Shown in pieces: positions 16,185-21,083 of a stretch of 22,748 nt of DNA. Positions within the stretch are counted from its first letter, which is position 1. Every line of letters starts with the position of its first letter. Source of the stretch: a virus (lineage: Duplodnaviria > Heunggongvirae > Uroviricota > Caudoviricetes); IMG/VR virus record IMGVR_UViG_2671180674_000012, positions 1-22,748 of that record; one strand, 5' to 3'. Under the pieces are notes generated by a model. The model had not been told where the DNA came from, did no database searches, and was given only the letters and a program-made list of their open reading frames with translations. The position numbers and the translations under genes were made by a program.

Positions 16185-16559
16185 ATGGGGATAGAATTTG
16201 TTTTGCCTTACCCGCCGACGGTAAACACCTACTGGCGACGCCGTGGCAGCACATATTTTATATCGGAAGCCGGTAAGCGTTATCGCCGTGATGTGGCACT
16301 TATAGTTCGCCAGCAGAGGCTGAAATTAAACCTGTCCGGAAGGCTGGCGATAACGGTTATTGCCGAGCCTCCGGATAAGCGCCGTCGTGATCTGGACAAT
16401 ATCCTGAAAGCGCCACTGGATGCACTGACACATGCGGGGTTGCTCATAGACGATGAGCAGTTTGATGAAATCAATATTGTGCGCGGTCAGCTCGTTCCTG
16501 GTGGGCGGCTGGGCGTGAAGATTTACGAAATAATGCATGACGGGCAGGTCCAAAAATGA
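16185..16559 (+). CDS. rusA: RusA-family Holliday junction resolvase
   Basis: LPYPPTVNTYWRRRG...PPDKRRRDLDNILKAPLDALTHAGLLIDDEQ matches the RusA signature; AGAGG RBS. Confidence 0.85.
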   Translation: MGIEFVLPYPPTVNTYWRRRGSTYFISEAGKRYRRDVALIVRQQRLKLNLSGRLAITVIAEPPDKRRRDLDNILKAPLDALTHAGLLIDDEQFDEINIVRGQLVPGGRLGVKIYEIMHDGQVQK

Positions 16560-17377
16560 AACTGGAAGATTTACCGAAATACTATTCCCCAAAATCGCCA
16601 GGCCTGACTGATGTATCCGCCTCGACGTCAAAAGATGCACTGAGTATCACTGATGTGATGGCTGCGCAGGGGATGACACAGAACCGGGCTGAGATGGGAT
16701 TTTCTGCGTTCCTGGGGAAAATGGGTATTAGTATGAATGACAGGGTGCGGGCAACAGAATTACTGACAGATTATGCATTAAGTCAGTGCGATCGTGTGGC
16801 GGCGTTAAGGAAACTTCCGGCAGAAATAAAACCGGCAGTGATGCGTATTATGGCTTCGTATGCTTTTGAGGATTATGCCCGCAGCGCAGCGAGTAAAAAG
16901 CAGTGCCCTTGTTGCCATGGGGAAAAATTTATTGAAAGCGAAGTTTTTACAAACAAGGTTCAGTATCCGGATGGTAAGCCGCCAGTATGGGCAAAGTGTA
17001 CAAAAGGCGTGTATCCGTCTTACTGGGAAGAATGGAAAAAAATCCGGGAGGTGGTGAAAGTTTCCTGTCCTGAATGTAAAGGGAAGGGGGAGATCTCCAC
17101 TGCCTGTAAAGACTGCCGTGGGCGTGGTGTTGCCATTCATCGTGAAGAGTCAGAAAAACGGGGTATGCCTGTTATCAGGGGCTGCCGGCGTTGTGGCGGT
17201 CGTGGCTATGAAAGACTGCCATCAACGGAGGCATTTAATGCCATATGCAAAGTGACGAGTGCTATCACGCTTGATACATGGAAAAAATCAGTGAAACGCT
17301 TTTACGATACGTTGGTGGTTCGGTTTGACATTGAAGAGGCATGGGCGGAGCGGCAGTTAAAGATGGTAACGCGATAG
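16556..17377 (+). CDS. Putative late antiterminator (Q-like) with four CxxCxGxG zinc-finger repeats
   Basis: ATGA overlap with rusA; CPCCHGEKF, CPECKGKG, CKDCRGRG, CRRCGGRG; positioned directly upstream of a promoter/terminator pair. Identity as Q is inferred from position. Confidence 0.55.
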   Translation: MKLEDLPKYYSPKSPGLTDVSASTSKDALSITDVMAAQGMTQNRAEMGFSAFLGKMGISMNDRVRATELLTDYALSQCDRVAALRKLPAEIKPAVMRIMASYAFEDYARSAASKKQCPCCHGEKFIESEVFTNKVQYPDGKPPVWAKCTKGVYPSYWEEWKKIREVVKVSCPECKGKGEISTACKDCRGRGVAIHREESEKRGMPVIRGCRRCGGRGYERLPSTEAFNAICKVTSAITLDTWKKSVKRFYDTLVVRFDIEEAWAERQLKMVTR

Positions 17378-17382
17378 TGTTG

Positions 17383-17410
17383 TTGATTTTTCCCGAATCT
17401 GTGGTAAATT
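17383..17410 (+). promoter_or_regulatory. pR'-like late promoter
   Basis: TTGATT (17383-17388), 16-nt spacer, TAAATT (17405-17410), immediately after the Q-like stop. Confidence 0.4.
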
Positions 17411-17458
17411 CGCCCTAACGATGGGCGTTTTGTGCCTGACGTTAGCGTGATTTCTACA

Positions 17459-17481
17459 ACCCGCCAGCGAGCGGGTTTTTT
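17459..17481 (+). terminator. tR'-like terminator downstream of the late promoter
   Basis: Short GC stem (CCGC/GCGG, loop CAGCGA) followed by TTTTTT; an earlier hairpin CGCCC/GGGCG with TTTT lies at 17411-17431. Confidence 0.5.
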
Positions 17482-17642
17482 GTTGTGATAGATAACAACT
17501 CCAGGTGGCATTCATTAGTGAATATTAGTTAATGTGTGCTGCCATGCGTTAAAAGATGTCAATTCGTTATTGACCGATATCAAATTATGGAAAGATGAAT
17601 TTCATTACTATTGAAAATCCGTTGTTTCAATAGGTGATATTT

Positions 17643-18359
17643 ATGCATAAACTAATTAAGCTGTTTTCATTTTTTATTGCACTATCGATATCTCAGTGTT
17701 ATGCCACTAGTAATGAATTCATAAGCGCCAGTAACAGTAGGGCATTTTCATTTTTTTTGCCTACAGGGCAAGCAATGGCTATCCAGTATCTTGATGGACT
17801 TAAAAGATATTCAGCGAGTGAGATTATAGACGATTTCAATAATAATGAATTGAGAGCAAAGAAAAAGTATAAAGATATATTCATCATAAACTCAACAGCG
17901 CGGGCGATTAAGCAAGACCTTGATGATAGGTTTTTTGTTCTGCTAAGGGATGGTAATAGTGGATTTGAATCGTTTTATGCTTACTATGATAAGAAATCAG
18001 AAGGTGACTTAGAGTTTCTTAACGAAGGTGATAATGTGGAGTTTATTTGCTCCAATGTTAAAAACATCATTATGCCAAGAGCGGAATGTTTTTCTATCGC
18101 TTTAAATCTTGAATCTAAAAATATTCAGGGAAACCCTATAAGATTTTTTGATAATGCTTATAAGTTGCAAAACACTTATAAGGCTACAAAAATAACATTT
18201 ATACTTTATTCTCTTCTGAAGGATAAAATTGAAAAGGACTGCGAAGAATCTATTGAAGCATGCAACCTGGCTGCCAGGAGGTTTACGGATAATGGCGCAT
18301 TACTTGACTCCATGCTTGAACCTTATGCGGATATGTTAAGTAAAATCGGTAACAATTAA
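17643..18359 (+). CDS. Secreted protein with Sec-type signal peptide and OB-fold (tRNA_anti-like) domain; AT-rich cargo
   Basis: AGGTGA RBS 5 nt before ATG; N-terminus MHKLIKLFSFFIALSISQCYA; central region resembles the tRNA_anti-like OB-fold pattern from memory; markedly AT-rich. Confidence 0.55.
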   Translation: MHKLIKLFSFFIALSISQCYATSNEFISASNSRAFSFFLPTGQAMAIQYLDGLKRYSASEIIDDFNNNELRAKKKYKDIFIINSTARAIKQDLDDRFFVLLRDGNSGFESFYAYYDKKSEGDLEFLNEGDNVEFICSNVKNIIMPRAECFSIALNLESKNIQGNPIRFFDNAYKLQNTYKATKITFILYSLLKDKIEKDCEESIEACNLAARRFTDNGALLDSMLEPYADMLSKIGNN

Positions 18360-18481
18360 CAAGGTTACATTCCAGGCATCCTGCCAGGGCTGCTTTTTTT
18401 ACCTCATTTACATCTATTGCTTGCTGGCTTTTTGGACAAGAGTTATTGGTATGTCACGTTAACCAGAAAAGGAAAAAAGAC

Positions 18482-18679
18482 ATGCTAAAACAGCAGGATA
18501 TGACCGAAACCGCCAGAGTGGTGTTTAATGAGTTAAGCGTCACCGAACCGGCGACCGTCGGGGAGATTGCACAGAATACTTACCTTTCACGCGAACGCTG
18601 CCAGTTAATACTGACCCAGCTTGTTATGGCGGGTCTGGCAGATTATCAGTTCGGTTGTTACAGACGCCTTTCGCAGTGA
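18482..18679 (+). CDS. Small HTH/winged-helix-like protein (65 aa), possible controller-type regulator
   Basis: ATG with AAAGGA RBS; TVGEIAQNTYLSRERCQLILTQLVMAGL is HTH-like; directly upstream of the methyltransferase. Confidence 0.45.
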   Translation: MLKQQDMTETARVVFNELSVTEPATVGEIAQNTYLSRERCQLILTQLVMAGLADYQFGCYRRLSQ

Positions 18680-18692
18680 AGGCTTTTTTATT
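18665..18692 (+). terminator. Putative terminator overlapping the HTH gene stop
   Basis: GCCTT-loop-AAGGC followed by TTTTTTATTT. Confidence 0.4.
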
Positions 18693-18829
18693 TGTGGTAA
18701 TGGGCGGCTGGTGGGTGTTAGCGGCACCTGCCAGCCATCTGCTCATGCGTTGGGGTCACAAGCAAACCTCAGGCCCATCTGCTTTGCGCAAAAGCGGAAT
18801 GAGCCTATCAGAGAAGTGCTTATTGATCT

Positions 18830-19876
18830 ATGATTAATACTGTAAAAATATCCAGTTGTGAGTTAATCAACGCTGATTGCCTGGAATTTATCCAGACCTT
18901 ACCGGAAAACTCTGTCGATCTGATAGTCACAGACCCGCCATACTTTAAAGTGAAGCCCGAGGGCTGGGATAACCAGTGGAAGGGCGACGCTGATTACCTG
19001 CAATGGCTGGACCAGTGTCTTGCGCAGTTTTGGCGGGTATTAAAACCCGCCGGAAGTCTTTACCTGTTCTGTGGTCATCGCCTGGCATCTGACACCGAAC
19101 TCATGATGCGTGAACGTTTTAATGTGCTGAACCACATTATCTGGGCGAAGCCGTCCGGACGCTGGAATGGGTGCAACAAGGAAAGCCTGCGGGCGTATTT
19201 CCCGGCAACAGAGCGCATTCTGTTTGCCGAACATTATCAGGGGCCATACCAGCCCAAAAGTGACGGTTATGCAGCAAAGGGGCGCGAGCTTAAGCAGCAT
19301 GTCATGGCCCCGCTGATTTCTTACTTTCGTGATGCGCGCGAATCACTGGGGATAACGTCAAAACAGATAGCAGAAGCCACCGGAAAGAAAAACATGGCTT
19401 CGCACTGGTTTGGTACCAGTCAGTGGCAGTTACCGAATGAGGCCGATTACAGTAAACTGCAGGCGCTGTTTGCACGTGTGGCGGCAGAAAAACACCAGCG
19501 CGGTGAACTGGAGCAGCCACACCACCAGCTGGTCAGCACATACAGCGAACTGAACCGGCAATATGCCAGCCTGCTGGAGGAATACAAATCACTGCGGCGT
19601 TATTTTTCCGTATCGGCTGTCGTTCCTTATACGGATGTCTGGACGCACAAGCCCGTGCAGTATTATCCGGGTAAGCATCCCTGTGAAAAACCGGCGGATA
19701 TGTTGCGTCAGATAATTACTGCCAGCAGCCGTCCAGGCGATTTGGTCGCAGATTTTTTTATGGGGTCGGGGTCGACAATAAAAGCGGCACTGTCGCTGGG
19801 ACGCAGGGCGATTGGCGTGGAACTGGAAGAGGAACGTTTTAATCAGACGGTCAGAGAAATAACGAAAGATTTTTAA
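18830..19876 (+). CDS. DNA methyltransferase, N6-adenine/N4-cytosine type, beta-class motif order
   Basis: DPPY catalytic motif near the N-terminus (LIVTDPPYF) and AdoMet motif FFMGSGST near the C-terminus; 348 aa. Confidence 0.85.
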   Translation: MINTVKISSCELINADCLEFIQTLPENSVDLIVTDPPYFKVKPEGWDNQWKGDADYLQWLDQCLAQFWRVLKPAGSLYLFCGHRLASDTELMMRERFNVLNHIIWAKPSGRWNGCNKESLRAYFPATERILFAEHYQGPYQPKSDGYAAKGRELKQHVMAPLISYFRDARESLGITSKQIAEATGKKNMASHWFGTSQWQLPNEADYSKLQALFARVAAEKHQRGELEQPHHQLVSTYSELNRQYASLLEEYKSLRRYFSVSAVVPYTDVWTHKPVQYYPGKHPCEKPADMLRQIITASSRPGDLVADFFMGSGSTIKAALSLGRRAIGVELEEERFNQTVREITKDF

Positions 19877-19984
19877 TTCAGTGATGATATAAGTTGTATA
19901 TTTCTGATACAGATGTATACACATATTTAAAACTGAACACCAAATATATTTTTGATGCCCACACAATCATTGTTAGTATTTGTG

Positions 19985-20008
19985 ACGACCTGAAGGTGGT
20001 CGTTTTGT
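19985..20008 (+). terminator. Putative terminator after the methyltransferase
   Basis: ACGACC/GGTCGT stem with 7-nt loop followed by a T-rich tract. Confidence 0.4.
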
Positions 20009-20433
20009 GTTCACAGGGTGTTAATACCACCGGAAAGGTCAGTGCTGACTTCCTGGTGATCAGTTTGTTGATTCAGTAATAACCGGTCAGCAGTGTGATT
20101 CCGGAAGTCAGCATTTTATGTGTGAGGGTAATTTCTGCTACCCGCACTGGTAAACAAATGAGGCATATCGTTTCAGCACTGGCGAGTTTCGCGGAGAACA
20201 GGTTTTGCAAGCGCCTTTGTCGTTCTTCATTCTGTAATATCTGACTGATTACAGTTTCGGTGCTGTTTTTTACATTGTTAACGTTGTGTATCATCGGATG
20301 GTTTTTATCAGAATGAGTCGCTGCCTGTTTCGGGGTCTGTGATTCGTCAGAATTACGTTGCAGGCTGACGAATCATTCTGGTAGTAACCATACAATTAAA
20401 CGCTGTCTAATTCTTATACGATGAATGCTTTGG

Positions 20434-20459
20434 GCCCGTCTCATGACGGGCATTTTTTT
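20434..20459 (+). terminator. Rho-independent terminator closing the repeat-rich noncoding segment
   Basis: GCCCGTC-TCAT-GACGGGC followed by ATTTTTTT. Confidence 0.5.
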
Positions 20460-20556
20460 ATCCGTGCGCAATGCCTGTTCTGTTATGGCATTTTTCATCT
20501 TTTCCCGGTTGGCTATTATTATGTTTTATTTTTCTGTATACAGGAGAATTGAGACT

Positions 20557-21048
20557 GTGATCACATATGCAGACATTCGGGCAAAGCAGGCTGAAATTCA
20601 GGAGGCCAGACAGGAGTACATCCAGCGACTGCGGGATATGGCAAAAAGGCTGGTCAAGACCTATGAAGACTCACTGGCATTGCCGAAACCACGATGGCTG
20701 GATATTGAGGGTAACTCCCATCCCTATGTTTATCTTTCTCATGATAGTTGTTGTGAGAAACCGGAGGATTTGCAGGTAGATTTTCAGGATGGGGTTACTT
20801 TTAATTTATATACGGTTGTTGATGATGATCCCCGCCAGTCTGTAAGTGTGAATATTACAGTGAGTATTCTGTTACTTGATGGCGACAACATGACGATTTC
20901 GGTTGATGGTTATCAGGCCAGGACATTTTCGCATGTGGATACCAACGCAAAAATTAATGAAGTGTGCGAATACATTAAAGACAGCATACTTATGTCAATG
21001 AATGAAGTGACGTTTGGCAAAAAATCCCTTTCAGAAGTGAAAGGGTAA
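20557..21048 (+). CDS. Hypothetical protein (163 aa)
   Basis: GTG start with AGGAG 10 nt upstream (the ORF-track start at 20425 lies inside the terminator and has a hydrophobic junk-like N-terminus); followed by its own terminator. Confidence 0.5.
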   Translation: MITYADIRAKQAEIQEARQEYIQRLRDMAKRLVKTYEDSLALPKPRWLDIEGNSHPYVYLSHDSCCEKPEDLQVDFQDGVTFNLYTVVDDDPRQSVSVNITVSILLLDGDNMTISVDGYQARTFSHVDTNAKINEVCEYIKDSILMSMNEVTFGKKSLSEVKG

Positions 21049-21083
21049 ACCAGCTGACACTCCGCTGATTCAGAAAATTATCA

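Follow-up and report, generated by a model that had tools for sequence, protein, structure and literature searches.

A rare AT-rich cargo gene directly after the late terminator of a lambda-like Escherichia coli prophage encodes an OB-fold protein with a predicted signal peptide

What kind of gene stands directly behind the late terminator of a lambda-like Escherichia coli prophage, and what might its product do for the phage or its host? The question is raised by an AT-rich gene in a tailed-phage sequence of 22,748 nucleotides (IMG/VR record IMGVR_UViG_2671180674_000012, positions 1 to 22,748), the whole of which is referred to here as the window. The original prediction, made from the letters alone, was that this gene encodes a secreted protein with an OB-fold-like core, that it occupies the position held by stx in Stx phages and is expressed at high level by Q-dependent read-through, and that a palindrome just upstream may be an operator. 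The gene and its product are called the OB gene and the OB protein below. We analyzed the gene, its transcriptional setting and its leader, then the protein, its relatives and the explanations that may account for it.

The OB gene, its late promoter and its leader

The OB gene extends from ATG 17643 to TAA 18359 on the + strand (17643..18359) and encodes a precursor of 238 aa, the mature form of which has 217 aa, a mass of 24.8 kDa and a pI of 5.0. The mechanical list of open reading frames starts this frame at GTG 17634; homologues begin with MHK or MRK at ATG 17643. The letters show a Shine-Dalgarno sequence, AGGTGAT (17632..17638, +), whose 7 nt are complementary to the 3' end of 16S rRNA and which has good spacing to the ATG. 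When the gene was compared with homologues from E. coli, Salmonella and metagenomes by the Nei-Gojobori method, every pair gave a dN/dS value within 0.16-0.34 (about 0.25). The OB gene is therefore under purifying selection, and the region is coding in homologous prophages. Both this coding signal and the Shine-Dalgarno sequence bear out the prediction of a real gene with a strong ribosome binding site. The low GC content that had been noted was also found, as the GC of the OB gene is 0.339 (GC3 0.314), far below that of its left (0.505) and right (0.472) flanks, and the neighbouring genes lie at 0.48-0.54.

An identical protein is present in public E. coli assemblies, where it is named 'hypothetical protein' or 'OB-fold protein'; some database names read 'OB-fold putative lipoprotein'. 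Many public records use the internal Met45 as the start, which yields a 194-aa protein (72 contigs for one entry; L041, L042 1501-2085), and these entries lose the signal peptide because they are annotated from this internal codon. For the 194-aa entries, the comparison covered 43 nt of upstream DNA and the initial 148 nt of the gene (corresponding to 17600-17790 of the window), and this DNA was identical to the window. Pseudogenisation was thus rejected as the cause of the shorter entries, which are start-codon miscalls. The C-terminal domain is lost through a frameshift after residue 169 in E. coli SC407 (L001 5260-5769), whose copy is one of nine in complete genomes.

Upstream of the OB gene, 16556..17377 (+) encodes a late antiterminator Q of 273 aa (PF03589, E 1e-49), the RefSeq homologues of which are named 'antitermination protein'. 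A DnaJ-type CXXCXGXG zinc-finger match (PF00684, E 4.6e-7) lies within its PF03589 domain. Alignment with lambda pR' located a lambda-type late promoter at 17383..17422 (+). Its -35 element is TTGATT (17383-88) in the window versus TTGACT in lambda. The -10 region GGTAAATT, with the TG-extended hexamer TAAATT at 17405-10, is identical to lambda, as is the pause-inducing -10-like element AACGATGGG (AACGAT, 17417-22), which is found at equal spacing. The roles assigned to these elements are those of lambda pR', which we take to be established knowledge. A terminator scan identified the intrinsic terminator tR' at 17458..17483 (+), with a 7-bp stem containing five GC pairs and followed by T6. The segment 17405-17490 folds with -28.7 kcal/mol (z -2.7), and tR' is kept in all related loci. 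A transcript that runs from pR' and terminates at tR' would be only about 67 nt long; the 6S RNA of lambda has 194 nt. A search of Rfam with 17300-18500 returned just Trp_leader; its 19.7 bits are below the gathering score of 41, and this match was judged to be due to chance.

pR', the pause element and tR' all precede the OB gene on its own strand, no strong terminator lies in between, and the OB gene is indeed the first gene after the late terminator, as had been predicted. No sigma-70 promoter-like site was found on the + strand of its 159-nt leader. Because the leader is devoid of such a site and the gene comes first after the late terminator, the simplest reading is late Q-dependent transcription, and it is natural to infer from this arrangement that the OB gene would be transcribed in this way. 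Some prophages of E. coli and Salmonella have a gene with an ORF6N domain after Q and before the terminator in front of the OB gene (L002 4359-4925; L009 7124-7687), which means that the terminator adjoining the cassette is not always the first element after Q.

The palindrome proposed as an operator (17558..17574, no strand assigned) consists of GTCAAT, a 5-nt spacer and ATTGAC, and thus has arms of 6 bp. The window contains 64 perfect inverted repeats with arms of 6 bp and loops of 3-8 nt, this one included, and the homologous leaders from Salmonella have lost it. As it is present at chance level, the proposed 17558-74 operator can be dropped. A different repeat in the leader, CUAUUGAAA-N8-UUUCAAUAG (17608-33), is perfect over 9 bp and is expected 0.0125 times in leader shuffles. 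Its arms form the inner 9-bp stem (17608-16/17625-33) of a leader hairpin at 17602..17637 (+), the outer stem of which is formed by UCAU (17602-05) and GUGA (17634-37). This hairpin, with a dG of -9.4 kcal/mol (z -2.7), masks the Shine-Dalgarno sequence. The same two-tier architecture is also found in L011, a homologue with 37% aa identity, and partly in Salmonella. Among the more distant relatives, L012 and L020 have an unrelated hairpin that occludes the Shine-Dalgarno sequence, and no occluding hairpin is present in L013, L015 and L016. Translation thus seems to be restrained by a leader hairpin in part of the OB family, and in the window the hairpin may restrain or switch translation of the OB gene. 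The 'high level' of expression in the original prediction is uncertain, because the conserved hairpin occludes the Shine-Dalgarno sequence.

Signal peptide, OB fold and C-terminal domain

Residues 1-21 of the precursor (17643..17705, +) were read by rules as a signal peptide, with the n-region MHKLIK, an h-region of 11 residues (LFSFFIALSIS), the c-region QCYA and cleavage between A21 and T22 at the signal peptidase I (SPase I) site CYA|TS. The features used as criteria for Sec export and SPase I cleavage, i.e., a positively charged n-region, a hydrophobic core of 7-15 residues and small residues at -3 and -1, are all present, as judged by rules and not by a trained predictor. At the cleavage site the close relatives read SQSYA|AD. 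The signal peptide is the sole hydrophobic segment of the OB protein (KD19 maximum 1.45). These observations agree with the predicted Sec-type signal peptide, and the OB protein would be Sec-exported and cut by SPase I after A21. The alternative that it is a lipoprotein processed by SPase II was also considered, with [LVI][ASTVI][GAS]C and a conserved Cys at +1 as the lipobox criterion. It was rejected, since the window reads ISQC and C19 is replaced by Ser in all other close relatives. A signal peptide, lipobox or membrane anchor is found at the start of nearly all of the 150 relatives listed, and the extra domains that co-occur in relatives are of extracytoplasmic types (SH3, PG_binding, MlaD).

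The OB-fold domain, which is of the PF12869 type, spans residues 53-152 (17799..18098, +) and contains an NELRAKKKYK motif and the conserved pair C136/C149. When the single window sequence was compared with PF12869, the score of 20.0 bits (E 5.4e-4, residues 53-134) was below the gathering cut-off of 23.5. The domain is recorded in six of the eight close relatives. A profile built from the close family retrieved 204 proteins at E <= 1e-3 from 1.84 billion representatives, mainly over residues 53-145. Among the listed profile relatives that were scanned, PF12869 was matched by 55 of 55 (E <= 0.01) and by 99 of 100 (E <= 0.001), and the wider family profile matched PDB 3F1Z at E 1e-3. Structure prediction by AF2 with seven close relatives was unusable (pLDDT 42.7), and an alignment of 55 diverged sequences was used instead. 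The resulting model reached a pLDDT of 74.3 overall and of 80-95 over residues 55-150, and showed a helix followed by five strands, which corresponds to an OB barrel with a preceding helix. Its structural fold matches share just 4-17% identity. Several phage proteins of the same fold were found in BFVD; they are annotated as tRNA_anti-like or lipoprotein, and one of them as 'host cell surface-exposed lipoprotein'. The OB fold of the cargo protein is thus confirmed by the PF12869 profile homology of the family and the five-stranded AF2 model. The original prediction had named three points on which it was to be judged, namely the signal peptide, the OB fold and coding in homologous prophages, and it stands on each of them; the region is both coding and conserved.

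Other searches with the OB protein gave no match in NCBIfam and two matches in PHROGs, phrog_13333 and phrog_14355, both of which have no assigned function. When the close family was compared with PDB by sequence, the only match was 8HER, an 'anti-sigma factor' (E 0.02), which was judged to be due to chance. A literature search for functional studies of PF12869, of the 'OB-fold putative lipoprotein' or of exclusion combined with an OB fold found none.

The OB domain is followed by a helical C-terminal domain (residues 153-238; 18099..18356, +) with a Y...CxxxxxxC motif (C200/C207) and AF2 helices at residues 178-202, 204-212 and 219-237. This domain alone had no match in Pfam or, by sequence, in PDB. 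In the alignment of the 55 diverged sequences, N68, C136 and C149 never vary, and E69, I89, G129, C200 and C207 are kept in 90% or more. An oxidising compartment is suggested by the two conserved pairs of Cys residues, and each domain probably contains one disulfide, C136-C149 and C200-C207, respectively.

The two-domain organization distinguishes the OB protein from the structure to which its family is linked. PDB 3F1Z, a PF12869 protein from Klebsiella pneumoniae that its depositors named 'putative nucleic acid-binding lipoprotein', is a single domain of 119-133 residues. In comparison, the OB protein has an SPase I signal and no lipobox, an extra N-terminal helical segment and the 86-residue helical C-terminal domain with CxxxxxxC. 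The BOF family (YgiW/YdeI, PF04076) differs in that it has neither the N-terminal motif helix nor the C-terminal domain, and its members are chromosomal stress genes and not phage cargo. In the Pfam scan, PF04076 did not match the OB protein.

A swappable cassette and its relatives in other phages

The boundaries of the cargo (moron) cassette were set by alignment with an empty site in strain PSS-15 and with the alternative cassette of a Stx2g phage. The cassette extends over about 17491..18418 (+) and consists of the leader, the gene and a 3' hairpin with a T-run. The latter is a weak terminator-like hairpin followed by T7 (18374..18400, +), with a fold of -10.1 kcal/mol that is not different from that of shuffles. 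Other cassette variants likewise end in a hairpin and a T-run. Downstream of the cassette lies a conserved backbone (18482..19876, +), which comprises a 65-aa gene at 18482-18679 (phrog_331) and an N6/N4 DNA methyltransferase gene at 18830-19876 (PF01555, E 4e-44), both present with or without the cassette. The 65-aa gene gave weak winged-helix matches (TrmB, E 2.5e-3; MarR_2), and a terminator-like hairpin was found at 18666-18683. In the segment after the methylase gene (19877-21050), the window has no tRNA genes, where related prophages have tRNA-Thr/Gly or Ile/Arg. The GC of this segment is lower (0.38-0.44), it contains a 207-aa ORF at 20425-21048 (phrog_5091, no assigned function), and it may be a second cargo site.

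The OB gene is present in nine of 5426 complete E. coli genomes, six of which are STEC strains. At least one flank was matched in 1939 of the same 5426 genomes; most of these match the pR'/tR' segment alone, and some are true empty sites, as in PSS-15. A Stx2g prophage with the same Q and flanks (L004 4244-4957, NZ_CP169399.1) carries an unrelated 237-aa gene in the slot (phrog_1521, no assigned function, GC 0.38), which identifies the site as a cargo exchange point. In this phage, stx is located about 2 kb further downstream, beyond the 65-aa gene, the methylase gene and three tRNAs. The statement that the OB gene occupies the position of stx therefore has to be corrected, as the two belong to a common late transcription unit but to different slots. 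Behind the same pR'/tR', the arrangement differs again in prophages of O157:H7 and ST131. In Salmonella prophages, this slot is occupied by homologues with 63-70% aa identity, which in some cases are preceded by the ORF6N gene, and conservation between E. coli and Salmonella extends to the 159-nt leader.

The close family is small, with eight clusters in 5.8 billion proteins. It was absent from 185,579 species-representative genomes (GTDB, one per species), and a tblastn search of 50,697 GenBank phage records gave no match to the OB protein. It is present in two IMG/VR contigs. Relatives were also found in a water isolate and in Entomohabitans teleogrylli. The fold of the product and the position, rarity and cassette nature of the gene are established, and the OB gene is a rare, swappable piece of AT-rich phage cargo (a moron) just after tR' of a lambda-like E. 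coli prophage.

With stx and the other lambdoid morons located between Q and the lysis genes, the OB gene shares its AT-richness, its presence or absence at a fixed site, its place in the late unit after Q/pR'/tR' and an exported product, which in this case is predicted. It differs from stx in that it comes immediately behind tR' and ahead of the 65-aa gene, the methylase gene and the tRNAs, and it has neither toxin similarity nor a detectable promoter of its own. The OB gene thus combines a PF12869 OB-fold protein, predicted to be exported, with lambdoid late-region cargo, and is an ordinary kind of phage accessory gene.

More distant relatives, at 17-26% aa identity, have the same two-domain build, with a signal peptide, an OB domain and a CxxxxxxC helical domain, and all their readable contexts are a prophage or a viral contig. 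In myovirus-type prophages, the relatives are located between Baseplate_J and a wedge gene (L012, L013, L015, L020, L024-26), where about 35-50 bp separate the gene from the late gene before it. Other relatives follow a tail-fibre gene (L016) or, in another phage type, a baseplate wedge gene (L027), and one is located between an anti-repressor and a small terminase gene (L029). In every context examined, the OB gene and the genes of its relatives are AT-rich compared with their surroundings (GC 0.31-0.39 vs 0.44-0.54 in the flanks). This distribution across unrelated prophages is the behaviour of mobile phage cargo.

Possible roles of the OB protein at the envelope

We read the OB protein as a soluble periplasmic ligand binder that is made late. 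In the explanation that we prefer, the OB gene is a horizontally acquired moron directly after tR' of a lambda-type late promoter, where Q would let RNA polymerase read through tR' and the gene would be transcribed with the late genes. Translation would start from the strong Shine-Dalgarno sequence, partly masked by the leader hairpin. The precursor would then be exported by the Sec pathway and cut by SPase I after A21, giving a soluble, acidic periplasmic protein of roughly 25 kDa, composed of the PF12869-type OB domain and the undescribed helical C-terminal domain, with one probable disulfide in each. During lytic growth, this protein would bind a component of the envelope other than nucleic acid. 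Access to the surface would thereby be altered, and the resulting superinfection exclusion or receptor masking may protect the producing cell and the phage progeny. Taken as a whole, the explanation of a late-transcribed, exported OB-fold moron that acts at the envelope has, in our estimate, about an even chance of being correct.

The last steps of this explanation, i.e., envelope binding and exclusion or receptor masking, are a guess made by analogy and held with low confidence. The guess was made because relatives of the OB gene adjoin tail genes, where known receptor-blocking genes sit, such as llp of T5, cor of phi80 and N15, and Z/fun of P2. Cor (phi80/N15/HK022), Llp (T5) and Ltp (TP-J34) resemble the OB protein as small phage cargo located at the envelope, which for the OB protein is predicted, and cor and llp adjoin tail genes much as the OB relatives lie beside tail or baseplate genes. 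However, these exclusion factors are lipoproteins and none was matched by sequence, whereas the OB protein has no lipobox. In addition, a protein that is expressed only late cannot protect a quiescent lysogen. A PADLOC search with the OB protein gave no match.

That the ligand would not be nucleic acid is suggested by the pI of 5.0 and by the profile-related OB domain of TcdC, which was reported to be located outside the membrane and surface-exposed (bioRxiv 10.1101/872283). The TcdC profile matches PF12869 (PMC3575817). TcdC of Clostridioides difficile, the OB domain of which is C-terminal, is a membrane-anchored protein of a Gram-positive organism, encoded in a pathogenicity locus, and is linked to the OB protein via the PF12869 profile only. 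The Pfam name would instead make the OB protein a periplasmic nucleic-acid binder that captures incoming phage or plasmid DNA to block its entry. We consider this very unlikely, as the mature protein is acidic, also in its OB domain, all of the family is extracytoplasmic, and the fold matches at 4-17% identity carry no ligand information. A role as an accessory of lysis or envelope integrity, e.g., by modulating the timing of endolysin, spanin or holin from the periplasm, would fit a gene that precedes the lysis genes in the late operon and has a product predicted to be periplasmic. Most prophages with the same Q and lysis backbone nevertheless have no OB gene, and relatives are found in tail modules far from lysis genes, so this role appears just as improbable as nucleic-acid binding.

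Somewhat less improbable, though still unlikely, is a host-directed virulence or colonisation factor, i.e., a periplasmic protein that is released at lysis like Stx and binds a host glycan or surface molecule through its OB domain. OB folds are used by the B subunits of AB5 toxins, the OB protein is predicted to be exported, and STEC strains prevail among the complete genomes that hold the gene. Furthermore, stx of related phages is part of the same late transcription unit (PMC6266700). On the other hand, no gene for a partner A subunit is present, the STEC005 prophage carries the OB gene with no stx in the region shown, and relatives occur in the water isolate, in E. teleogrylli and in tail modules of unrelated prophages. 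The narrower proposal of an AB5 toxin B subunit was rejected, as there was neither a structural match to the subunits of B pentamers nor an adjacent A-subunit gene. We give similarly little credence to a lysogenic-conversion gene, which would be expressed from its own promoter in the quiescent prophage, with 17558-74 or the TTGAAA..TTTCAA repeat as the operator, and would be active at the envelope all the time. Morons frequently have a promoter of their own, and the leader, including the inverted repeat at 17608-33, is conserved between E. coli and Salmonella. This repeat, however, overlaps the Shine-Dalgarno sequence and is better explained by an RNA hairpin, and the 17558-74 repeat is unconserved and at chance level. 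The leader also has no sigma-70-like site on the + strand, and the myoviral relatives follow the preceding late gene closely.

Beyond the window, the preferred explanation of an envelope-acting late moron may extend to the family. The two-domain subfamily could be a so far unrecognised class of periplasmic proteins that phages carry for exclusion or receptor masking. It would move as AT-rich cargo in the late operons of unrelated phages, and some of its members would have their translation gated by the Shine-Dalgarno hairpin, possibly in response to temperature or a signal. This extension is doubtful, although it seems to us less so than any of the rival explanations above. Most deserving of follow-up in this otherwise modest lead are the pattern across the family and the leader hairpin. 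For the phages that share this common Q module, the slot after tR' is a point of cargo exchange distinct from the slot of stx. If the OB protein acts at the envelope, a soluble type that is not a lipoprotein would be added to the short list of phage exclusion and receptor-masking factors. It would also provide the first functional handle on PF12869, a domain that is widespread in extracytoplasmic proteins and bears a misleading nucleic-acid name.
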